Source: a virus (lineage: Duplodnaviria > Heunggongvirae > Uroviricota > Caudoviricetes). Taken from it: a stretch of DNA of 48,178 nt. This document shows, one piece after another, positions 3,812-48,178 of the stretch. Both the position numbers and the translations under genes were made by a program. The notes beneath the pieces were generated by a model, which was given only the letters and a program-made list of their open reading frames with translations, was not told the origin of the DNA and did not search any database. The DNA lies in IMG/VR virus record IMGVR_UViG_3300031853_000008, positions 64,001 to 112,178 of that record; one strand, given 5' to 3'. Position 1 is the first letter of the stretch. Every line of letters starts with the position of its first letter.

Positions 3812-4966
3812 ATGACCCTTTCTGATTACAGAAGCCTGTTTAATGCAGGAGATTCTATGGGACGTGTGCTGAAGAAAAATGCGGATATGATTATCAAATA
3901 GACATGGGACAGAGATATTGATTCTCAGATTGCATATCTATATGACGATTCTCATGATAAGAGTGACGAACGTCATAAACTGGATGATCTCCATTCTTCT
4001 CAAGATGAGAATAAGATTCCAGTAAAGATAAAATTCATCCGGCATGGATCTCAATCATACGAAAAGGACCCTGTGACTTATTGGCTTCAACTCCAGCCTG
4101 GTTATGACATGGATGTTCCATATTATGATGAAGTTTTTGGGAAGCGTTATAAAACGCTTTATCCAATCGGGCTTTATTGTGATGTAATGGATGAACGTGG
4201 CAGATATAACCGATGGTTAGTCGCCGATAAGGCGAATTATGACCAGAATCAGTTCCCGACATTTGAACTTCTCAGATGTGATTATCTCTTTCAGTGGGTT
4301 GATCATGATAAAAGGTATGAAATGCCTGGAGCGATGAGAAGCCAGAATTCATACAATAATGGATTGAATGCAGGAACTATTATATAGACTGGTAATGACA
4401 TGCAGAAATTCTGTGTGCCACTAAATGATGTGACTGAGACTTTGTCATATAATCACCGCATTATCATTGATGCGTGGCTTCATACAGATGTTGCTGTTCC
4501 TCGTGTCTGGAAAGTATCAAAATTGAATCGTGTTATGCCAAACGGGATCGCAAGAATTATGCTTACTCAGGATTTGTTCAACCCGCATTCGGATGTCATT
4601 GAACGTGACGAAGATGGGAATGTTACTGGTATGTGGGCGGATGCAATTGATGCCCATATTCCTGTAGCGGAAGAAATGATTTAGGGAGTTTTAACTGCTA
4701 GTGGAAAAAACAACTAGATAAAAATCGGCGGGTCATACAAGACAATTAAGGCTGAGTTCCCGAATGGTGATGTTCCTGATTCATGGGAATATACGATTGA
4801 CGGATAGGATGCTACTGCTCTCCTGTCTTTCTCTGATACAAATAATTCGAACTCTGTAAGAGTAAAATTCATGGGTGACGACACATATATTGGCAAGACT
4901 ATCTTGGTCAAATGCAATTCAAACGGTAAGACCGCTTCAATAAAACTTCTGATTCAGGCATTATAA
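3812..4966 (+). CDS. Putative head-closure / head-tail joining protein with C-terminal Ig-like part (384 aa)
   Basis: One frame from ATG 3812 to TAA 4964-4966 with 5 TAGs, covering track ORFs 4073..4387 and 4400..4684. Function inferred from synteny. Confidence 0.65.
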
Positions 4967-17200: not shown

Positions 17201-20200
17201 CATCATTTTATCAAATCGTAGATGTTCTGAAACAGTGTTATTCGACTGTCAAAGACCTTGATTCTGCTCTTACCTAGATGCGAAAAGTCTCAGATGAATC
17301 GGTCGCTTCTCTTCAAAAGTATCAAAAGGAAACGTTTGATATTGGCGACCAAATCGGCACCTCTGCCCTTTAGATACAGCAGTCAACGGCTGATTGGATG
17401 AGACTTGGCGAGTCATTTGAGGAAGCTAAGAAATCCGCAAGGGAAACGAGTATTTTGTAGAATGTATCTGAGTTCGAAAATATTGATGACGCTACTAAAG
17501 CTATGGTATCAGCTTCTCAAGCGTATAAAGAAATAGCTAAGTCAGATATTGTAGATAAGCTAAATCAAGTTGGTAATACTCAGAGTATTTCTACTTCCGA
17601 ACTTGCTACTGCTCTTCAGAATTCTGCATCGGCATTGAAAACGTAGGGCAATAACATCGATCAGGCTCTTGCATTGATTACTGCGGGTAACACAACCGTT
17701 CAAAACCCAGGTAAGACTGCGACTGGGCTTAATACGATTGCAATGAGACTGGCAGGAACTGAATAGGCTAAGAATCAACTTGCGTAGTCAGGGGAAGATA
17801 CATCGGACTATATCATTCAGACAAAATCTAAGCTTGATGCTCAAATCAGAAAACTCACGGCAGATGCTTCTAACAACTTTAAGGGAATTAGTCTTCTTGA
17901 TGAAAACGGCAATAATAGAAGCACTTTTGATGTCTTGAAAGATATTTCAAAAATATATGAAAATCTTGTAAAGACAGATAAAGAGAAAGGCACTAACAGA
18001 GTTCCAGCACTTCTTGAATTGATTGCAGGAAAGAAACAGGCGAATATTGCCGCTTCTATTCTTCAAAACCCAGAGGTATTGGAAAATGCTTATAATGAGT
18101 CCGCAAATAACTCAGAGGGGTCCGCTCTCAGCGAGAATGAGAAATATCTTGATTCTATTGAAGGTCGTGCTAATAGAATAAAGAATGAGATTACGGAAAT
18201 TTCTGCGAATTTTATGAAGACTAGAGATGTCAAGCTTGTCATGTCTATTCTATAGAAAATTCTTGATTTCGTTAATGCTATCACAAAAAGTGTTGGGGGA
18301 CTTGGAACTGCTATTTCTCTTGCTATAGGGACAAAAAGCTTCCTAAATAGCGGAAAAGGATGGGCATTCCAATGGAATCAACTGTCAGACGGGACGAGAA
18401 CATTGTCTGCATTCGGGCAAGCATTGCTTGATTTTTCATCCAACCAGAAAAAAGCCAAAGTGGCAATTGATAGCACTTCATAGAGTTTCAAAGGAATGGC
18501 AGCAAATGAACAGCTTGCTGCGAATAATGTAAGCGTTTTTGATATTTTTAATAAGCAAAAGGCTTCTACTCCTGAATCAGGTTAGACTAATTCTAATGTT
18601 GCGAAAGGAATGTTAAAAGGTCTTGGCGGGATTGGAGCTAATATTCTTGGTTCGCTTGCGTCAGGCGTCTTAAACTTTGGCATTAGTGCACTCTTATCAG
18701 CAGGAATTAACCTTATTCTTAATGGGATTATTTACAACTTACCGTCTGAAATTCAGAAACGCGGAGATTAGGCAGCTTCCGATATTCAGAAATCAATTGA
18801 GTCATACAATGAGAAGAAAACTTCTGCCAACAATCTTCTTTAGAAATATCAATAGAATCTTGGTGGGGTCAAAATCAGCAACAACAAGATTTAGAATTTA
18901 TCTCTTACTCAAGAGCAATATCAGGAGTTTCTTGATACAAACAGATAGCTTGCTTCACTTTTCCCAGAACTTGTTACTGGGACCGATGCTCAAGGGAATG
19001 CAATTGTAAACCTTGGAAATAATGCTGAAGAGGCAACAAAAAAGATTCAAGGGCTTGTAGATGTTCAAAAATCTGAGACACAAGAATAGATAGAGGACAA
19101 GATAGACGCTTCTGTAGAGGGAATGAAAAGTAAACAGAAGTAGATTGAACCTGAAATCTAGATCGCTCAATAGGAATTAGATGCTATTAAACCGTATGTT
19201 GGCTCACATATGGGCAATCATGTAAAAATATATGACAATGGGACATTTCAATTCGATAGCGGGAACGCTTCTGACGCTTATACAGAAGCACTTATGCAAA
19301 TAGCGAAAGAACAAGGATTATATTCAGATGGTTCATCATTAGAAGGAGCTGGTTATTTCTATGACAAGTAGGGGAATGCTCCAAGTGAAAAAGCCTTAAA
19401 GAAATTGCAATACGCTATCAGGCAAGATAATAGCGTGGCGGATATTCTGACGCAGCAAAATTATAATGAGAAAGCTTCCCAACTGTCTCAATACAAGAAA
19501 CAGCTACAGGCGGCAAGCAAGAAAGTAGGGCTTAATGTAGATGCCTTATTCCAGACTTCTTTCTATTATGACACCTATACCCCGGAAATTCAAAATCTAC
19601 TTGACAATGTCTTAAAGAATATTGATTACTCAAGCTTAGACTATACGGAGTTTGGAGATTTATCAACTTGGTTATCAGATGGTTTTATTAAGTCTTTTAA
19701 TACTGCTATAGCATAGGCAGAAAGTCATGGGATTGACGAAAAAGATTTTGCTAAACAGTTGAATGACTTAATTGATTTAGATACATCAAAGTTAAATGCA
19801 AAACAAATCAAAGATAAAATCCAAAGTGCTCTGACATATCTTATCCCAGATGAGACGTTACGTAAAGACATTGAAGTGCAACTTGGTTATGTTGTTGTTG
19901 ATTAGGATGGAAAACCTGTCACTAATGATAAGGGTGAATTTGTCTATAAAGCATAGCAAAAAGCTGATTAGGCACAAGATGTTCTTTCTCAAATCAAGGG
20001 GAGCAAATTGTCTGCCGATTTCGCTAAAGGCTTAAATCAAACGCAACTTGATGCTATTCTTTCTATAAGAGATGAACACGGAGGGGCTGTAAATAATTAT
20101 ATTGATACCTCTAGTGATCAAGCTGCTAAGAAGAGTCTTGACGAATATGCGAAGCGAGAAGCGAATAAGAAGCGTACAAACAAATTTAGTAGCCTTCTTG

Positions 20201-23200: not shown

Positions 23201-26200
23201 AAGCGGAATAGGCTCTTGACGCTATTGCTAAAAAGTGGGAACTTTCGAAAGAACAAGCTGAACAAATTGTCCCAATTCTTGAGCAAATGGGGCTTATCAG
23301 TGGCGGAGAACAATGGTACGAAAATAAGAATCTCCCACAATTCAATGGGTCAACTGGCACAAGCATAAATAACTATTAGAGTTGGCGAAAGGATATGGGA
23401 ATTGTACAAGGGTCGGGTGATTTTGACCTTAGTACAATGTCAGATGAACAAGTAACAAACAAACTTGCTTCTCTCCAATCCAATCAGAAAATGATGATGG
23501 AGCTTGGGCTTGATGACACGCCCGCTAAGAAAGAACTCGATAGTTTAATTTCCGAAGTACAAAAAGAACATGAATTCCGTGTAAAGATGAAGACATTGAC
23601 TGATAGTAGCGGAAACTCTATCAGTGCAAATGAACTCTTAAACATGGATAAATCTTCCAGAGACAAGATTATTTAGTAGCAGCTTCATATCAAACCCGAT
23701 ACCGCTGAATATGACGCATTTATGCAGCAAGTGACTAACCATTCAGCAGTACAGGAGATTCAGACTCATATCGCTAGTGGGGATCTCACAATAGAATAGG
23801 TGAACCAAATGTTAACATCTGGAGATGTTAGCAAGATGGTTGATTTAGGCATTAACCTTGAAGGGGCTGACCTTGATACAATTAAGAAAATGCTGAATGG
23901 GGAAGGCTCAACTATGACTGTTGAGATTTCTACAGGGCAAATGGATGAATTAACTGGGGCTATCTCAGCTGGTGTTGACACAAATGAAGCGCAGAAAAAG
24001 ATTAAAGAAGTCAGCTAGATGGCTTCCCAATCCAAACCTATGATGCATATCAAAGGGGATAATGCTGATGTTAGACAAAAAGCCACGAAAGCTAGCAGAG
24101 ACATTTCTAATATGCAGCCACTTATGCATATTTATGGTAATAATGGGCAAGCATTAAATTCCGCTGAGACGGCTAGAAAATCAATTGCCAACAATCCGGC
24201 ATATATCAAGATTCATGCATTTACTGGAGGTCTTGGGACTGAGATTAGCAACGCTCTTGCCGCAAGAGAATTCCATGTAAGGGTACATGGAGATGTCACA
24301 ACTGGCGGGGTAGCTACTGGCACTGCAAACGCTAGAGGCGGAAAAGCATTTAATACTTATGCTACTGGAACACAGGATTGGGCTATTCCAAATGACCAGG
24401 TTGCGATTGTCAATGAACTTGGGAATGAATCTATCATAAGAAACGGTAAGTGGCACAAGATTTCAGGCGGGGCGCACTTTGAGAATCTTAAGAAGAATGA
24501 CATTATCCTATCGGCTAACCAGACTAAGGCTATAGAAGAAGCAAAGGCTTATGACAAAGGGACTATTAGTTCATACGCAAAGGGTTCTAAAAAGAAGGGG
24601 ATTTTCTCAAGAATTGCTTCTGTTATTTCTAATGTCATTACTGGGAAATCCGCAAATACGAAAGAATACAATAGTTGGAAAAAAGGATTAAAACAAGACG
24701 TTGATTATGTTAAGAGCAAAGGCGTTGACCCAAATAAACATCAGTATGGAAATATTGATACGAATAATCGTCAAAAGATTCATTGGGATAATAAGACTCT
24801 TAAGAAGAATAAGAGTGCTTTACAATCCTGGGAGTTTCAACGTGACGAGCAAGGGAATCCTATCAGAGATGAAAAGACTGGAGACTTTGTCTCCCGTCCT
24901 TGGAATGACATAAAACAAGATTTTAAGGGAACTGACTCTACTGTTTATGGTGCAAGCGGCGAACTTTCCAATGGGCAGCAAGTTGCATTCTCTCCCATCC
25001 AACAGACTAAGAAGGGTGCGGTTCTGTTAGACAGACGTGCCGTGTATTCCTATCTTGAGGATATTGCAAAGAGGGCAAATGGCGACCCGAAATAGATGTA
25101 TCGTCTTGATAAGAGAGAAAAGAGCCTTATTGCCGATATAGGAGATACAGCTGAATTAACTGGATAGATGATGCACTGGACTGGTTCTACGAGCCAGATT
25201 GGCGAAGATATCCGGGAAATGCTTAAGTATGCGAAGTTATCCGGGAAATCTGGTGAAGCTAACAGTTTGCTTAAGCAATTAGGATTAGCCTATGCAGAAG
25301 GAACTATTCCGTCCTATTCTAAGGGTAGGAGTATGGGACTCGCATATGCTAATGGCGGTGCGGTGGACGAGAATGGCTAGGCGCTTGTCAATGAAACTGG
25401 CGAGGAATCCATTGTTCGTAATGGCAGATGGTTCAAGATTCCGGGTGGGGCACATAAAGAAAAACTCAAAAAGGGAGATATTGTGTTCGATGCCAAAAAG
25501 ACCGAAGAACTTCAGAAATATGGAAAAGTTAAATCTGGAGATAAACATGGTCATGTGGCATACAATGATGGTACTGCCGATGATGAAGATTTTGAATAGT
25601 TTGTAAGTGGCTCTATCCCAGCTTATGCTACTAGTAGTGCGTCAAACAGATTTAATCCAAAAGCCCCCCACACCCAAGGAAAAGCATTTAAGAACAAAAA
25701 GAGCAGTAAAAAATCTGGTAATAAAAATAAAGGCAAAAACAAAAACAAAAATAAAGCAAAAAACACAAAGAAGGCTTTTGATGAATTCAAGTAGTGGCTT
25801 GGCGATCTCTTTGATTGGGTCGAAGTCCGGCTTGACCGTGTAAAGGCTCAGATTGATCTTGCAGCTCAAAAATCGGAAAATGCAATTCTTTACCAAAATT
25901 CTACAGCCGCGGCAAAGAACCAACACGTTAATACTGAAATCGCACGGACAAGAGACCTCATTAATGATAACACTATCGGGGCGCAGACCTATCAAAACCA
26001 GGCAACAAAAGTAGCGAATAAAGCTGTTGCGTCTGGAGTGATCAGCCGTTCCAAGATGAACAAATACATTGAGCGTATTAAGTCTGGTGACCCAAGGCTT
26101 ATTGAAGATTTGTATGCAGAGTATGGCAATGATTCTGATAAAGCCGAGAAGATCAAGACGATTATCGATGGGTACAAACAGTGGTACGACAAGTCGCAAC

Positions 26201-29121
26201 AATGTGTACAGTCGGCGGAGGAACTTCGTGGTTCTCTGCATGACCTTGCGCAAAAAGAACTTAGTAATATTACTGAACATTATCAGACGTGGCTCGATTT
26301 ACAGAAACAGATTAGTGATAATGCCGCAGGATTTGTCACATACGCTAATGCTAGTGGCGTAACCGATAATTCTAACTTCATCAAAGGGCAATATGATGCT
26401 CAGATTAGTGCAGGAAATAACCAACTTGGAATTCTGACCCGTGAAATGGCGGAATATAGTGCAAAGATTAGAGAATTCCAGAGGCAATCTGATCTTGGTA
26501 TGCCAGTTAATTCAGATGCGTGGGGAACAGCGATTAAGTAGCTTCAATCTATGAACAATCAGTATGTCGAACTCTTGAGCACTGTCCAGGATTTGAGGCG
26601 TACAAAGTTTGAACTTGATTATAAACCGATTGATTATGCTATTAATAGACTCACCTCTCTGATTGACAAATCAAAAGAAATCATTAAATTGAGACAACAG
26701 CTTGGTAAAAATAAGATTGCCCCAAGCCCGTGGGATGTATAGCCGTAGGAGTCAGATTATATTGAAGTCATTAAGCAGTCGAACGATTTGATGGCTGAAT
26801 ACCAGAATACAATCAATAAAGCGAATCAAGAAATCAAAGATATGGGAGATTCATTCGATTCCGACAAATATGAAGCCGAAGTTCAGAAGATCCGCGAAGC
26901 GGAAAAGAACATTATCTCTCTTACTGGCAGCATCATGGATCTGAAGAAGGAAATCTTCGGAGTTAGATGGAAAGGGTTTAACGACCTTGAGACTAAGATG
27001 CAAGAGGTTAATAGCGATCTTGAGCATCTGTCAGGACTGATTGATGACAATGAAATGTATATTGGCAAGTGGGGCACTGCTCTCTCCGATTATGGTTATG
27101 CAAAACTTGCTCTTATCGGGAAAGAACTGGCAAATGACGAAGACCAGATTGCAAACTTCCGTTAGGCAATTAAGAAGCTTGGGGAGCAAAAAGCAAGCGG
27201 GTTTATCAATGAAGAAGTCTACCAGTAGAACTATAAGAGTTACAAGAAAACACTGCAAGACTACGTTAAGAACGCAAAATCCGCACAGGAACAACTCGCT
27301 AAAATCTACACGCAACTTATGTAGAACGAAAACGAGCTTCTGCAAGACAATATTAGCAAACGAAAAGAAGCTCTTCAGGCAAAGAAAAATTACTATGAAT
27401 GGGATAATACCATTCGCCAAAAGAATAAAGATATTCTTAGTTTGCAAGCACAAATAAATGCTCTTAATGGCATTTCTTCCATGAGCGGACAAGCAGAACG
27501 TGCTCGACTTCAGTCTCAGTTGAGTGACGCTCAAAAGGATATGACAGACACAAGGTTCGGTCATTCGATTGATATGCAGTCGGCTGGCTATGACCGTATG
27601 GCAGAAAACGCTAATACCGCACTTAAGGATATTGAGACAGCGATTGAGAGAAGTTCTGCACTTCAGCAACAGATTGTCAATGATATGCTTGACAAGATGT
27701 CGCAGAATGCAAGTACTGCATTTGCTGGAATTCAAGATATTATTCTGAACACGCATACCGCGGTTGAAGAAGAAACTGCTAACCAGATTGCAGAGTTCCA
27801 GAACGAGCGTTCTGCAATGGATGCGGTTGCAAGTGGAGTTCAGATTCCTGTATAGGTAAAGGCTTCTGATAATGGGGAAGCGTTGACCATCAGAACCCTT
27901 ACAGAACATTTCCATGAACTTGTGAAAGTATTCTCAGATAGGGAAGACCTCGTTACGTTCCCACAGAAGACTACGTCAAGTGTCAAGATCAACATCGATA
28001 CGAATACACAAGATGCGATTAAAGCATTTGATTCACTCACGGAAAGTATTAAGAAGATTGGTGATCAAGCACAAGAGTCTCTTAACAAGCTGAAAGAATT
28101 GAACACGTCACAAGCGAAACCTTCAACATAGGCTACTGGAGTTAAGACAAATGATGTCAATACATTAACCCTAGGGAATCAACAGACTGTCAAAGATGTT
28201 TCAAGCGGTAAAAATACTTCTATCGCATAGGCTACGGGTGAAGCAAACAAAAAGGCAACAGAACAGAAAGTGGCGCAGCAAGCCGCAGCCGCAGCAGCTA
28301 GAGCAAATGTATCTAAACCAGCTCCTGCTCCCGCACCAAAGCCAGCTCCAAAACCAGCACCAAAGCCAGCTCCAAAACCAGCTCCGCTCACCACTCAAGA
28401 TGTATTGTTGGATTATCTTAACAGGATTAATTCAATGCTTGGAAATAAAAAACTACGTTGGACGAGGATTAAATTACAGCAAGAAGCTATGAAATACGCT
28501 ATCGATCATCTTGGGAGACCACATGCTGAAGGTAAAAAACTCACTAAGAAGTAGAGAAGAGAAGCAGGCAGCCTAAAAAAATTACTAATTACTAAATATG
28601 GAAAAACAGGGGGTAATGGGCTTTATGCGTGGTTAGGACGGCTTGGGCAACGCGAAGTAGCAAATCCTAGTAAGATTACTTGGTAGGAAGCGGAGAAAAT
28701 TGCTGACAGAATGAAATCCCTTGGGTTAAAACGTGGGACAAAAAATTATCGTGGTAATCAAGTCGGTTGGATTGATGAACAAGGTGCGGGATCTGAAATG
28801 ATTATCCGTAAGTCTGATAATGCAATTCTTACCAGACTTCAAGCAAACGATGCGGTTGTTCCAGCAAACCTGACCGATAATCTCTGGAAATGGGGAGCGA
28901 TCTCACCTGACAAGTTTATTTCCAAGACAAACAATGAAATGAAACCACATAATCTGCAACACATTGACAATAATATCAACGTTACTTATGGCAGCTTGCT
29001 CACTGTTAATGGCAATGTTGATAAGGACGCTTTGCCGGGACTCTAGTAGATACTTAAGAAAAGCTATGAGTACACGACAAAGTAGTTAAAACGAGAAGCT
29101 AGAAAGACTGGTTTTCGTTAA
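11239..29121 (+). CDS. Giant tail tape measure protein (5,960 aa)
   Basis: Frame +1 has no TAA/TGA for 17,883 nt (scanned line by line) and about 130 TAGs by manual count. The TMP core starts near 17170 (KDLDSALTXMRKVSDE...STADWMRLGES...LITAGN). C-terminal motifs include FDWVEVRL, SKRKEAL and GSEMIIRK...VVP. Confidence 0.9.
28315..28386 (+). repeat. Coding tandem repeat (PAPK)n in the tape measure
   Basis: Degenerate 12-nt units CCAGC(T/A)CCAAA(A/G) encoding KPAPAPAPKPAPKPAPKPAPKPAP. Confidence 0.9.
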
Positions 29122-34464: not shown

Positions 34465-35493
34465 ATGGCAAATATTATTTGTACTGGCGATTATACGATT
34501 ACTGATTTTAATGATGCGATTTCCCTTAGTGGATATATCGGGGCAAATCTGCCTCATACACAGATTTACTCTCCTGATAATGAATCGTACACCCCAGATT
34601 GGAGTGATGAAGGCGGGGCGCTGATCCTTACCCCGGAATTATATGTTACTTCTACAACTGCAAATGTTATCACAAGTTCTGCTGTAACAAAGGTAACTTG
34701 GTATAAAGATGCAGAGAAGACCCCTATTGCCACTGGTGGAGAATATTCTCTTAGTGGAGCGAAGTCTCATATCCTTACGATTAACAAAAATATCCTTGCA
34801 GATGTGAATTCTGTAAAGTTTATCTGTGTAGTGGATTATTTAGATTCCACTACGGGTCTTAAACTGAAACATAAGATGGATATTACATTTACTCTGGTAG
34901 AATCTGGTTCTGGCATCGCAGACGCTCTTGCTCTTTGCCCGGAGGGAAATGTGTTTAAGAATGGGACGATTGCTTCCCTTACAGCGACTTGTGACCTTTA
35001 CCGTGGTTCTACCATTGATACTACGGACGTGAAATATCAGTGGTATAAGAAGGATACTTCTGCAAGTACAGGATGGACAGCTGTTAGTGGGGCAACCACT
35101 CATCAGCTTACTGTCAAGCCGTCTGACGTACCGAATGTGGCTGTGTATAAGTGTGTTATTACTGACGGAGAAGGAAAGAGTTATTTCGATACTGTAACTT
35201 TTACTGATTTATCTGATCCCATTCAGCTTACGATTGTTTCTACTGGGGGGGACACATTTAAGAATGGTAACGGCTCGACTACCCTTACAGCTAGACTGTT
35301 CCAGGCGGGGAAAGAAATAGATACGAATACTCAAAGCCCGCAGCACGTTTATAAGTGGTACAAGTATGACAAGGATGGAAATCTTGTTAAGGGATATGGC
35401 GGGACAAACGTAGATTATAAAACAGGAAAGACCCTAGCGGTCTCAGCTGATGATGTAGATACAAAGGCAACATTTAGATGCGAAGTTGAGTAA
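34465..35493 (+). CDS. Ig-like domain tail protein (342 aa)
   Basis: GGAGG RBS, TAG-free ORF with three repeated beta-rich units (FKNG..TLTA.L...Y.WYK...C.V). Confidence 0.75.
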   Translation: MANIICTGDYTITDFNDAISLSGYIGANLPHTQIYSPDNESYTPDWSDEGGALILTPELYVTSTTANVITSSAVTKVTWYKDAEKTPIATGGEYSLSGAKSHILTINKNILADVNSVKFICVVDYLDSTTGLKLKHKMDITFTLVESGSGIADALALCPEGNVFKNGTIASLTATCDLYRGSTIDTTDVKYQWYKKDTSASTGWTAVSGATTHQLTVKPSDVPNVAVYKCVITDGEGKSYFDTVTFTDLSDPIQLTIVSTGGDTFKNGNGSTTLTARLFQAGKEIDTNTQSPQHVYKWYKYDKDGNLVKGYGGTNVDYKTGKTLAVSADDVDTKATFRCEVE

Positions 35494-40397: not shown

Positions 40398-40718
40398 ATG
40401 TACTCAAAAATCCTGCAAGGCACAACGCCCAGTCTAATCATCCATGTCGAAGATGTAAGCCTGTCTCTGACATCGGAGATAGAACTGACCATCCGGCAGG
40501 GCGAGACGATCAAGATATACCATCTTGCTGATGTTATCCTGGATGCGTCAGCCGGAACGATAACAAAGTATTTTTCGGAAGCTGAGACGCTTGCCCTCGA
40601 TCCTGCCAAGATGATGCAGTGGCAGTTGAGGGTAAAGTTTACAGACGGCAATATCACCGGAACGCCGATACAGTTACTGAGAGTGAGCGACCTGATTTCA
40701 GAGGAGGTGATGTCGTGA
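40398..40718 (+). CDS. Small baseplate upper-protein-like (BppU N-terminal type) protein (106 aa)
   Basis: GAGG RBS, QGTTPSL...QLRVKF.DG motif, TAG-free. Confidence 0.6.
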   Translation: MYSKILQGTTPSLIIHVEDVSLSLTSEIELTIRQGETIKIYHLADVILDASAGTITKYFSEAETLALDPAKMMQWQLRVKFTDGNITGTPIQLLRVSDLISEEVMS

Positions 40719-41638
40719 AACTGGTTGATAATGTCATCAAGGCAGATGCGACACTGGGTGTTAAGGTCGAGCCGTATGATGACACGGAACTGAGGGAGCG
40801 TGTCGAGGCTCTGGAGCAGAAACCAGACAAGGACACTGTCTACGATGACACCGCCTTATCTGCCAGAGTGACCGCACTGGAAAACCGTGAGGACAAAGAC
40901 ACTGTCTATGATGATACTGCCCTGTCCGAGAGAGTCACTGCACTGGAAAACAAGCCAAACACAGCCTATGATGATACGGCGATCCAGTCTCAGCTTGATG
41001 CTGTCATCAAAACGGAAGACAGCAGTGCGCCATGCACGTACTCTGCCGGAGACTTTTTCGTGTACGACGGCAAGTTGTACAAGGCTTCCGCAGACTTTTC
41101 CGCCGTCACGCTGACCGCTGACAATATCAGCACTTACGCAGAGGCACAGGCGCAGACGGCTATCAATGCGTTAAACCAGAGTCTGAAAAACCAGATCGAT
41201 GCGGCGAATGAGAAAATCGACACGAACACGAATAATATTGCAACGAATACGAGTGCAATCAATACGCTAAACAACGGTTTAACAGTAAAAGATATTACGT
41301 CTCAATTAGGGGCACCCAGTGGGATGAAAGTAGTTGAAATTGGTAATATATTGTATATCAACATAGCTGGAACCAAGGTTGAAGACGTTAGACAGTGGCA
41401 TATCCCCAAAGAGTATTGCTCATCTCTTGGTAACGTAAGATTTTCTGGAATTGCAACCCAAAGTACAAACGATACAGGCAACGCAATAGGGCTGCCAGCG
41501 TTGCTTGCGTATCCCGGAAAAGATAGTGCTTCTGGAAATACTAGTTTAATGTGGGTTACGGTAATTAATACAAGTTGGAGATGGCAAGTGATTTCGTCCA
41601 GATACTACATTTTTGCTAGTGCTGTTATACCTCTATAA
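40715..41638 (+). CDS. Second fibre/adhesin-like protein with YDDT repeats (307 aa)
   Basis: GTG 40715 follows GAGGAGGTG and overlaps the previous TGA. Contains YDDT..L..RV.ALE repeats, the 71-bp repeat, and site 2 (41266-41283) before a distinct tip. Confidence 0.7.
   Translation: MKLVDNVIKADATLGVKVEPYDDTELRERVEALEQKPDKDTVYDDTALSARVTALENREDKDTVYDDTALSERVTALENKPNTAYDDTAIQSQLDAVIKTEDSSAPCTYSAGDFFVYDGKLYKASADFSAVTLTADNISTYAEAQAQTAINALNQSLKNQIDAANEKIDTNTNNIATNTSAINTLNNGLTVKDITSQLGAPSGMKVVEIGNILYINIAGTKVEDVRQWHIPKEYCSSLGNVRFSGIATQSTNDTGNAIGLPALLAYPGKDSASGNTSLMWVTVINTSWRWQVISSRYYIFASAVIPL
41141..41211 (+). repeat. 71-bp perfect direct repeat, copy 2
   Basis: Identical to 39576-39646. Confidence 0.95.
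41266..41283 (+). other. Putative crossover site 2 (direct orientation)
   Basis: GCTAAACAACGGTTTAAC shares the GGTTTAAC arm and reading phase (LNNGLT), but its core is AC rather than AA. Confidence 0.5.
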
Positions 41639-44551: not shown

Positions 44552-46159
44552 ATGATTAAGATTAACAAAAATTTAATGAACAGAAATCATACGGCGCTTA
44601 AACGATAGAATAAAGACATTCAATGGATTGTGATCCATTATGTCGGGGCACTTGGTGACGCAAAGGCTAACACTGATTACTATAAGAGCAACGATATCCA
44701 AGCATCTGCTGATTTCTGGGTTGGATTTAAGGGCGACATCTGGCAAGGTAACGACTACAGAAATTATTATTCGTGGCACAGTGGCGGAGGGTATCAGTCA
44801 TCTTGGACGAAAGACGGCGGGGGGCAATACTATAGGGTTGCCCTTAACAAAAACTCTGTTGCTATCTAGATGTGTGTAAAAAAGAAAAATACTTCTAATC
44901 TTGTTGCAACCGATACAGATTGGTACTTCGAGGATGCCACCGTTGATGCGGCCGCTCAACTCACCGCATATTTAATGAAAGATCTTGACATTGATATTGA
45001 CCATGTTATTCGTCACTACGATGTCAACAGAAAAATCTGTCCAGCCCCCTATGTCCATAATTATCAAGCGTGGCTCGATTTCAAGAAAAAAGTAGCTTCG
45101 TATGCGGCAGTCACTAACGTCAAAACTTATTATTACAGGGTTCGTTCTTCTTGGCTCAATGCAAAATCTCAGCTTGGTGCGTACACCATCCTTGAAAACG
45201 CAAAAGTAAACTGCCCATATGGATATGCAGTTTACGATGAATCCGGCAAAGAACTTTATCGTAACTCTACTGCCCCATCTAAAATTTCTGAAGCTAAAGG
45301 AATCCCCGCGTCAAAGCAAGATTTCATTAGCAAAGTGGCAAAAATAGCTGTCGCCCTGTACCCAGAAACTAAGATCCTTCCATCTATTGCAATTGGACAA
45401 TGCTGTCTTGAAACTGGGTTTGGGCTTGGCAAGGATTCTACTATTCTCGTTAAGAATAACAACCTTCTTGGCATGAAAGCCGCCCTTATCAACAATACAT
45501 GGAAAGAACATAGCGTGTGGAACGGAGAGACTGTCACAAAGAGAACCCCCGAAGTATATAACGGAAAACTTACCTACATTAACGACACATTCCGAGTCTA
45601 TAAAGACTACTAGAATTGCATCAGAGATTATTAGATGTTCCTATCATGGGCCACGGATGGCAAAAACTACAAGTACAGGGAAATTATTGGCAAGACTGAC
45701 CCGGCATAGGTAATTCATATTATCCGTTCACATGGGTATGCGACAGATCCGTCATATGAAGAAAAAGTCTTGAGAGTCATCAAAGAAAACAATCTCACAC
45801 AATACGATAAGATGGTGAACAAAACGGTCACCGTCCCTGTAAAGCCGTTAAATGCCTCTAAAATCAATTCTAACAAAAACGCGAATAAGTTATCTGGCAA
45901 GCGGCAAAAACAAGAATCCGGGGCTTCTACGAAGTCAGGCACCGTTCTCTACAGGGTGCAGTGTGGTGTATTTGGGGTCGAAGAGAATTGCGACAATATG
46001 ATCAAACAGATGGCGCACCGTGGGTTCAAAGCAGTTAAAAAGAAAGTAGGCAAAATGTTTGTCGCACAGGCTGGAATTTACTCTGTTCGGTAGAATGCAG
46101 CCTATATGGAGCAAAGGCTTGAAAAAGCGGGGCTTCCACATTCGACCGAAATTATATGA
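44552..46159 (+). CDS. Endolysin: Amidase_2 + GH73 glucosaminidase + SPOR-like repeats (535 aa)
   Basis: IVIHYVG, NSVAIXMC, VIRHYD and KICP (Zn amidase); QCCLETG and GYATDPSY (GH73); YRVQCGVF and QAGIYS (SPOR). Six TAGs; ends TGA. Confidence 0.9.
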
Positions 46160-46178
46160 AGAAAGGACATTAAGAAAA

Positions 46179-47318
46179 ATGAACGTATATTTAGATAACG
46201 CTGCAACAACTCGCGTGTATCCAGAAGTTGCCAAGGCTGTTCAATCATGTTTCTAGGAAGAATACGGCAACCCCTCTTCTCTTTACGAACTGGGGCGTGG
46301 AGCAAGAGACAAAATCGATTATGCTAGACAACAGATTGCAAAATTTATCAACTGCTCCCCGGAAGAAATCTATTTTACTTCCTGTGGGACGGAATCAGAT
46401 AACTGGGTGCTGAAGGCTATGGCGGACTGCAACCCCAATGGGCATATCGTGACGACCATGATTGAGCATAAAGCAATCTTGAATACTTGCAAATGGCTTG
46501 AGGAACATGGTTATACTGTAACTTATCTCGAACCAGACGAACGAGGGATTATTACTCCAGATCAAGTAGATGACGCTATTAATGAAAATACTTTTCTTGT
46601 ATCTGTAATGGCGGCAAATAATGAGATTGGGGTGATTGAGCCGATAGAGGAAATCGGGAAAGTATGCTAGGAGCGGAGTGTTCCGTTCCATACTGATGCA
46701 GTTCAAGCTTATGGGCATATCCCGATTGACGTTAAGGCAATGCATCTTAATTATATGTCTGTATCCGGGCATAAGTTTCACGCTCCCAAGGGGACAGGTT
46801 TCCTTTATGCGAAAGGGGGAGTTATCCAAGAACCTTTCATGCATGGGGGCGGCCAGGAGAATGGGCTAAGAGCCGGGACGGAGAATGTGGTTGGGATTTA
46901 CGGCATGGGAGTCGCCACAAAGATTATTTCATGCAATTTTACAGAACAGATCGACAGAATGACTGCTCTACGTGACCGTATGATCAATCGTGTACTGGAT
47001 GAAATTCAAGATTGCGGGTTGAATGGCCCCTTTATCAGCAGAAACCCGAACAATGTTTCCCTGTGGTTTGATGGGATCAATGCAGATACCGCAGTCGCTG
47101 CCCTTGACACTTTTGGAATTCAATGCTCCTCTGGAAGTGCATGTAATACATCAAACTCCGCACCGTCTCATGTTCTTTCCGCTATAGGTCGTGGCGGCGT
47201 AGCGGACTGCACTCTCCGCTTCACTCTTTCAGACTTAACCACGAAAGAATAGATTGACTATGCCGTGGATGTTCTGAATATTGTCATCCCGCAGCTACGC
47301 AAGAGTAAAGTATCTTAA
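46179..47318 (+). CDS. iscS: Cysteine desulfurase (379 aa)
   Basis: YLDNAATT, GNPSS, TESDN, NNEIG, HTDAVQ, SGHK (PLP Lys), GGGQE, RAGTEN and SSGSAC (catalytic Cys). TAG at 46254, 46668 and 47250; ends TAA. Confidence 0.92.
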
Positions 47319-47442
47319 GGAGAAAATATGTCTGGCAACAAGGCATTTGTAATTTTAGGTAGGATTCGACGGAATATAAAACCGCCAAATTTTGAGAAAC
47401 TAATTAATAAAGATATTCTGATTTAGAAGGAGGGGATGCAAG

Positions 47443-47628
47443 ATGCTCAAAATCAGAGGAACGACAATCACGCTGACGAGAGGCGACTCCCTCAGACTCA
47501 AAGTGAATATACAGGATAAGGCGGGAAACCCCTATCAGCCATCATAGGGCGACACAATACTTTTTGCCCTTAAGAAAAATTATTCGGACGAAGATAACAT
47601 TACCAAACATTATGATAAAGTCAAATAA
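47443..47628 (+). pseudogene. Truncated small BppU-like protein (61 aa)
   Basis: GAAGGAGG RBS. MLKIRGTTITLTRGDSL...YQPSXGDTILFALKKNY is the N-half of a family I recall as about 110 aa; it stops abruptly in an AT-rich junction. Confidence 0.6.
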
Positions 47629-47681
47629 AAATAAAATATACTTGACTTTTTAACCCGGCCTGTCGGAAAGGTGGTGGTCAC

Positions 47682-48178
47682 ATGACTAAGAACATTGGAA
47701 CAGTGAGATCTATTCTTTTGCAGCAGCCTGAGAATGTGATCATCGAAGCAGCACGTTTTTACCAGAAATCAGGTAGACTGGTTTCGGAGCAAAGCTACTA
47801 TAAGACCCTAGAGAGGATGACAAAAGCCGGGGAACTGGTTCATTTGGCAAAGGGCATGTATTATCGTCCTAAAAAATCCCGCTTTGGCATGGTACCGATA
47901 AGCGAGAAAGAAATCGTCTCTCATTTTACAGGAATGAACAGGGGGCTGCTCGTTGGTTATCGTCTTTATGTGAACAAAGGACTCACTACATAGGTCAGTA
48001 AAAATGTGGAGGTCCTTTCCGTATTAGTCAGGGAACAGAAGAAAAATATCGGCAATGTCTCTGTTTCAAAAATCGAGATGGAACTGAACCCTGAAATAAA
48101 AAGCATGATCGAGGCTTTTGAGGTGCTTCAAAACTACGGCAGAATTCAGGATATGAACACTGGCGCTTTTGCCGATTA
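47682..48178 (+). CDS. DUF6088 / AbiEi-like antitoxin, 3' partial
   Basis: LERMTKAGELVHLAKGMYYRPKKSRFG (wHTH) and GYRLY..KGLTTXVS. The frame stays open past TAG 47991 to the window end. Confidence 0.7.

Follow-up and report, generated by a model that had tools for sequence, protein, structure and literature searches.

A TAG codon at an invariant glutamine of a mobile AbiEi-like gene is very probably a private change in the contig of a phage that reads TAG as glutamate

The window analysed here comprises the last 48 kb (48,178 nt) of a 112,178-bp linear phage contig, for which CheckV gives a completeness of 66%. Its tip holds the 5′ part of a DUF6088/AbiEi-like antitoxin gene, which contains an in-frame TAG codon and is joined to a late gene of the phage. 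The features of this tip are given below, where L001, L002 and L003 denote the closest DNA relatives of the antitoxin gene and G006 a complete relative of the phage.

47443–47592, plus strand: first 50 codons of a phage late gene with one in-frame TAG, cut at the junction; the homologue in G006 is a 117-aa ORF.
47588–47592, no strand: ACGAA junction at which phage DNA meets the DUF6088 module, an arrangement without counterpart in the contigs of other runs.
47614–47681, plus strand: upstream region of the DUF6088 gene with a –35-like TTGACT, without the 13 bp that hold the TG-TATATT –10 box of L001-L003.
47682–48176, plus strand: DUF6088/AbiEi-like antitoxin gene, first 165 of about 231 codons; the rest is lost at the contig end.
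47991–47993, plus strand: the TAG codon at issue, codon 104, in frame from 47682 (context GLTTXVS), at a Gln position that is invariant in the family.

The truncated product matches the Pfam family DUF6088 (PF19570) with 27.2 bits, above the curated cut-off of 25, and a match to AbiEi_4 is weak and below its cut-off (14.7 versus 25). The best of its 130 homologues is 93% identical and 231 aa long, and most of the homologues listed carry a precomputed PF19570 match. A sequence search of the PDB with the DUF6088 profile gave no meaningful match. For the full-length homologue with 93% identity (P0002), an AF2 model (pLDDT 92.6) has as its best PDB matches Rv2827c of M. tuberculosis (1zel; E 2e-5, TM 0.48 by model and 0.40 by target, probability 1.00) and AbiEi of S. 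agalactiae (6y8q; E 9.5e-5, TM 0.39 by model and 0.44 by target, probability 1.00). These two proteins represent the AbiEi antitoxins of type IV AbiE systems, which share a two-domain fold with an N-terminal winged helix, and the model likewise combines an N-terminal winged helix with a C-terminal domain in an AbiEi-like fold. Because the homologue model best matches Rv2827c and S. agalactiae AbiEi, the name “AbiEi-like” appears to be fair for the gene at 47682. In the same model, the winged helix-turn-helix and a helix at residues 75-98 both lie N-terminal to codon 104, and Q104 is placed in an ordered loop that leads from helix 93-98 to strand 109-113.

The initial annotation of this DNA had noted that the TAG falls on a near-invariant Gln of a GLTTQV motif, and had proposed either a lone CAG-to-TAG transition in an accessory gene or a statistical decoding of TAG as Glu and Gln. 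Its reading of the motif holds: the column of codon 104 contains Q in 119/119 aligned homologues. Across 70 loci of bacterial genomes that contain this motif, the residue is encoded by CAG (39) or CAA (31), with no instance of TAG or GAR, and the use of both Gln codons indicates that Gln is retained through synonymous turnover. The window copy thereby differs from the AbiEi family, as TAG takes the place of the invariant Gln codon in GLTTQ, and Q104 is the only one of the 25 columns conserved to at least 97% in the DUF6088 gene that is broken. Compared with L001, the gene shows a dS of 0.45 and a dN/dS of 0.077, which points to a history of strong purifying selection on an otherwise constrained gene. 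None of its 14 Glu codons is TAG, whereas TAG makes up 20.7% of the Glu codons in the phage late genes (P = 0.04), and the DUF6088 gene therefore appears not to be adapted to the code of the phage.

At codon 104, all three closest DNA relatives (L001-L003) carry CAG. Contigs from other runs were aligned on 46000–48178, and two runs only, X3 and X7, cover position 47991; both have a C there (depth 16/16 and 9.5/9.5, respectively), as seen in contigs, which drop rare variants. One 122-nt contig from X3 differs from the window by a single base, 47991. The proposed lone CAG-to-TAG transition in an accessory gene is thus supported by CAG in the near-identical X3 and X7 copies and in the closest DNA relatives, and by the absence of the gene from related phages. 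The annotation had also reasoned that ambiguous decoding would fall if sister sequences showed this TAG to be private, and the near-identical copies from other runs do carry CAG. A look-up of the 103-aa truncated product gave no return, although this look-up may exclude records from the genome of the window itself, and exact-pattern scans for the TAG/CAG site and two alternative junction contexts found nothing in viral or JGI metagenome contigs. A distance of 188 nt separates the TAG from the contig end, and metagenomes contain several coexisting variants of the element in this stretch.

L001-L003 are 87.7% identical to the window from 47614 to the contig end. They show the gene order large serine recombinase, DUF6088 gene, AbiEii, and are found in standard-code bacterial contexts. 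The gene for the AbiEii nucleotidyltransferase (PF08843) follows just downstream in the relatives L002 and L003, as in AbiE systems; unlike these, the window copy ends with the contig inside the antitoxin gene, without AbiEii in view. The opposite contig end has no match to the L001-L003 loci. A further 80 DUF6088 loci come from Bacillota and other bacterial assemblies, and five genomes of related phages, four with a completeness of at least 90%, do not have the gene. From this distribution, the DUF6088 gene appears to be a horizontally mobile, accessory gene outside the conserved gene set of the phage. As a side observation, the closest copies at L002:4024-4718 and L003:1494-2188 have one A fewer in an A-run than the window and L001; DUF6088 is called there as a 157-aa ORF (L002) and a 74-aa ORF (L003), and AbiEii of L003 is called in two pieces. 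These copies may be decaying AbiE modules or may reflect sequencing errors.

Phage-side contigs from four runs of four studies (X3, X4, X5 and X7) match the window up to 47592 and then continue with a different sequence, which extends the small ORF at 47443 in frame. DUF6088-side contigs from X4, X5 and X7 match from 47588 and have other sequence upstream. The two sides lie on separate contigs in four runs and are linked in the window's contig alone. The gene to which the 47443 ORF belongs reaches 117 aa in the complete relative G006, and only its first 50 codons are present here. The DUF6088 module thus seems to interrupt a phage gene in this contig, with a 5-nt overlap at the join. The join at 47588–47592 could stem from a chimeric assembly of the contig tip or from an insertion specific to this strain. 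A run search with a 64-nt junction-spanning query, of which only two words are sampled, listed two probable source runs only, and single-protein pattern scans of viral contigs with DUF6088, a capsid candidate and a 1356-aa tail protein returned nothing. In contrast to L001-L003, the window copy of DUF6088 has no –10 box, and a sigma-70-like pair was not found ahead of its start codon. The 13-bp gap was considered as private decay of the promoter; this idea was dropped, as contigs from X4, X5 and X7 carry the same short upstream form.

The reading of TAG was also examined in the genes of the phage itself. With table 11, the late genes on the plus strand break up into fragments, and long ORFs emerge if TAG is read through, the longest of 5,960 codons with 132 in-frame TAGs. 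Genome-wide, 268 in-frame TAGs are found in plus-strand late genes and almost none in minus-strand early genes. Two features of these genes are listed here:

44867–44869, plus strand: TAG in the lysin gene, taken as a control, at a near-invariant Glu of the Amidase_2 domain (E in 118/118 aligned homologues).
Genome 57699-70506 (window to about 6506): head and packaging genes, the region of TAG enrichment, where TAG is commoner at the most conserved Glu positions.

Three more TAGs of the lysin gene lie on E-majority columns. In the terminase, the TAG columns hold E in 133/138, 98/117 and 69/103 homologues, and Q leads in none of them. Nine loci found with the lysin were considered as sister phages and ruled out, having the lysin alone in common.

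An alignment-based scan yielded 80 related phage loci, 77 of which have at most one in-frame TAG in the homologous genes and were used as the standard-code set. At the TAG codons of the query, these 77 relatives have E in 46%, D in 13% and Q in 6.7%. This profile nearly coincides with that at GAG codons (E 39, D 12, Q 7.2) and differs from that at CAG codons (Q 32, E 11). By majority residue per site, E leads at 31/56 TAG sites and Q at 4/56; the corresponding numbers are 152/280 and 18/280 for true Glu codons, and Q leads at 57/142 Gln codons. Gln-majority columns thus account for 7% of the TAG sites compared with 6 to 9% of the true Glu codons. BLAST optimises known residues, but not X, so 5% of the residues were randomly masked as X to provide controls. 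In this tally, the 56 TAG sites show E 43.5% and Q 7.2% against the 77 relatives, masked Glu shows E 28% and Q 9%, and masked Gln shows Q 30% and E 10%. For the TAG sites, Glu leads the ranking of residues by 22 log units; in a two-class mixture, the Gln-type share of TAG sites is estimated as 0 (rough interval 0-0.10).

The distribution of TAG over conserved positions gives a positive argument for faithful Glu decoding. On columns with at least 90% Glu, 9/23 Glu codons are TAG (39%) versus 46/304 elsewhere (15%; Fisher p = 0.007), and TAG occurs at none of the 11 columns with at least 90% Gln in the phage genes. A codon read as a mixture would be selected away from positions that accept only Glu; enrichment at such positions is therefore the opposite of what ambiguous decoding predicts. 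A Gln excess at TAG sites, the expected trace of a recent Gln-to-Glu switch, was not seen. Judged from these alignments, the late genes appear to use TAG as a faithful Glu codon, and the statistical Glu/Gln decoding put forward in the initial annotation is not supported, as the sites show no Gln-type class and TAG is over-represented at near-invariant Glu. With a codon that depends on the suppressor at their essential residues, the late proteins would be of no use in the absence of the tRNA. We found no description of a TAG=Glu reassignment in phages in the literature.

Three places in the tape measure protein (TMP) gene had been cited as sites that read naturally as Q:

17371–17373, plus strand: TAG in SALXIQQ; relatives have Q, Q, Q, A and D (Q 3/5).
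17644–17646, plus strand: TAG in KTXGN; relatives have mainly A, not Q.
29044–29049, plus strand: two adjacent TAGs (29044/29047) in LXXIL; the context is confirmed, and there is no alignable relative.

The contexts are thus correct at all three places, but alignment to Q was seen at 17371 only and fails at 17644. The Gln majority at 17371 is unremarkable because true Glu codons show a Gln majority at 6 to 9%. For the TMP as a whole, E reaches 14.9% at TAG sites versus 18.1% at masked Glu, and Q 7.6% versus 12.2% at masked Gln; this profile resembles that of masked Glu, in alignments that are too weak to rank residues and give little power. A first tally, according to which the TMP TAGs are not Glu-like (E 10.7% versus 28% at Glu codons), was discarded as an alignment-optimisation bias that is gone with the randomly masked controls.

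The contig encodes a candidate suppressor far upstream of the window:

Genome c[26061-26133], minus strand, 37.9 kb before the window: tRNA(CUA), found by ARAGORN and Rfam.

It is the only CUA tRNA on the contig by both methods, and with the contig about 66% complete, a second one could lie in the missing part. The other tRNA-like Rfam matches are a tRNA-Lys and two interrupted mimics, none with a CUA anticodon. The tRNA(CUA) is collinear with Clostridia tRNA-Glu, with a 3-bp D stem (GTC/GAC), a 10-nt D loop and a 4-nt variable loop, and its acceptor has C1-G72, G2-U71 and A73. In these Clostridia genomes, tRNA-Gln differs by its U1-A72 pair, a D loop of 9 nt and a variable loop of 5 nt. For bacterial GatCAB, U1-A72 is a positive determinant, and the extra D-loop base of tRNA-Glu leads to rejection (PMC2811023). 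The suppressor has neither U1-A72 nor the shorter D loop, and its C1-G72 pair and D-loop length argue against amidation of tRNA(CUA). [quoted passage not shown] Codon usage, and not identity rules, suggests that tRNA(CUA) is charged with Glu, given its unusual 1-72 pair and C33.

No gene for GluRS, GlnRS, GatB or a GatA-type protein was found on the contig; at about 66% completeness, a synthetase could lie in the missing part. When tRNA(CUA) was compared by BLAST with the genomes of five bacteria and with five records of related phages, T-arm matches or nothing at all were returned, and a terminase search of 400 Clostridia genomes revealed no prophage relative. The tRNA(CUA) itself has two oddities, a C33 where tRNAs almost always have U, and C1-G72 in place of the G1-C72 of tRNA-Glu. 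The tRNA-like genes at genome c[28297-28409] and c[4248-4338] score above the tRNA threshold of Rfam despite being interrupted, and neither has a CUA anticodon; the former carries an insert (...GCTAACAGCAAAAC) in the anticodon arm.

Taken together, TAG 47991 is very probably a private C-to-T change in a mobile DUF6088 gene whose link to the phage is seen in this contig alone, with TAG as a faithful Glu codon of the phage. The change from CAG to TAG would have arisen privately in the mobile antitoxin-like gene of this assembly, while the late genes of the phage would decode TAG as Glu through one tRNA(CUA) of tRNA-Glu architecture without GatCAB features. Given a private change, a mobile gene and a linkage in this contig only, no conclusion on the decoding of TAG by the phage can be drawn from this codon. 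If the gene truly resides in the phage and is translated late, the product would carry Q104E at an invariant position and would probably be impaired. Translation in the absence of the suppressor, or in a standard-code bacterium to which the gene would then belong, would end after 103 residues, at the cost of the C-terminal domain. Speaking against a private change, the gene has evolved under strong purifying selection, and ambiguous decoding would predict a functional, intact gene with a need for Gln104. Position 47991 was the only concrete counterexample to TAG=Glu, and its private nature removes this objection. For annotation, the late genes should be translated with TAG=E, and the DUF6088 fragment at the contig tip should be treated cautiously.

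The DUF6088 fragment could instead originate from a genome with TAG=Gln (code 15), or have recently resided in one, where a CAG-to-TAG change is silent, and have been joined to the phage later by recombination or assembly. Such genomes exist close by. Among the 80 related loci, L157, L158 and L159 are the only TAG-recoded ones; their terminases are about 64% identical to that of the window phage, and one of them was located as follows:

L157:10001-11752: terminase gene of L157, which lies within G006, a 202-kb record.

The TAG columns of L157-L159 are mostly Q in the standard-code relatives, with Gln ranked first by 7 to 10 log units in each. Two reassignments of TAG, to Gln and to Glu, thus seem to occur among related phages; the new observation is that recoded relatives found by their terminase would read TAG as Gln. 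At the tRNA loci of G006, ARAGORN found no CUA tRNA, and three weaker Rfam tRNA matches are present. With the code-15 phages described so far (crAss-like, Lak and the clades of Borges et al.; bioRxiv 10.1101/2021.08.26.457843; PMC9523058), the window phage shares TAG-rich late genes, TAG-poor early genes and its own tRNA(CUA). Unlike in these phages, its TAG aligns to Glu in standard-code homologues and not to Gln, whereas L157-L159 do fit code 15. For phages with a code unlike that of the host, only TAG to Gln and TGA to Trp have been observed (bioRxiv 10.1101/2021.08.26.457843).

A code-15 origin of the fragment would be in line with the presence of both codes in related phages, with the junction unique to the window's contig, and with one TAG in 8 Gln positions, an unremarkable share. 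However, G006, the complete relative with TAG=Gln, does not have the gene, every located relative of the gene sits in a standard-code bacterial context with full-length neighbours under table 11, and the near-identical X3 copy carries CAG. We therefore regard a code-15 origin as unlikely.

TAG 47991 might also be a genuine and possibly regulated stop codon, which would yield a 103-residue winged-helix fragment unless the suppressor is present. In-frame TAG is nearly lacking from the early minus-strand genes, which suggests that TAG still acts as a terminator while the suppressor is in short supply, and by the model the winged helix-turn-helix and helix 75-98 would be encoded before codon 104. 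On the other hand, the TAG is kept in no other copy, and hence there is no sign of selection for a stop, and the window copy has no recognisable promoter of its own. A functional stop is thus quite improbable. Very low probability likewise attaches to the T at 47991 being a sequencing or assembly error, or a minor allele from a low-coverage contig tip, an explanation suggested by the position of the site 188 nt from the contig end within a stretch of several coexisting element variants, and one that no observation directly opposes.

TAG could also be read mainly as Glu, with a minor fraction of tRNA(CUA) carrying Gln, for example by mischarging through the host GlnRS, so that the amount of Gln-104 antitoxin made would suffice to keep the gene useful. 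In that case, noise in the decoding of a newly reassigned codon would allow the TAG at codon 104 to be tolerated, a scenario that we consider even less probable than an error at the contig tip.

The least probable reading is ambiguous decoding proper, in which tRNA(CUA) supplies Glu and Gln, through partial GatCAB amidation or mischarging by GlnRS, and serves both types of sites. In its favour are the TAG on an invariant Gln in a gene with a dN/dS of 0.077 and the few TAG sites that align mainly to Gln (the 4/56 and 17371 of the TMP). CUA suppressors in E. coli are also prone to glutaminylation, a tendency that has been noted in the literature as well (bioRxiv 10.1101/2021.08.26.457843). Yet Gln-majority columns are no commoner at TAG than at true Glu codons, the mixture estimate of Gln-type sites is 0, and TAG is enriched at near-invariant Glu, opposite to what is expected of an unreliable codon, while being absent from near-invariant Gln of the phage genes. 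In addition, the suppressor lacks U1-A72 and has a D loop of tRNA-Glu length, and the other copies of the DUF6088 gene carry CAG. A precedent for ambiguous decoding is the CUG codon of Candida, which is read as both Ser and Leu. Compared with ambiguity of this type, TAG of the window phage is not avoided at critical Glu sites, no Gln-type class of sites is seen, and the tRNA is without the determinants of the proposed second route.

Two further observations concern the late-strand genes. Those at 34465-35493 and 40619-41638 (about 340 codons each) have no in-frame TAG, and their neighbours have many; the two may be recent acquisitions or may be expressed before the code switch. The gene at 46173-47318, where the late operon ends, encodes a class-V aminotransferase/cysteine desulfurase (NifS/IscS-like) with three in-frame TAGs, an unusual auxiliary gene in a phage, whose product matches solved cysteine desulfurases with an E of 7.6e-89.
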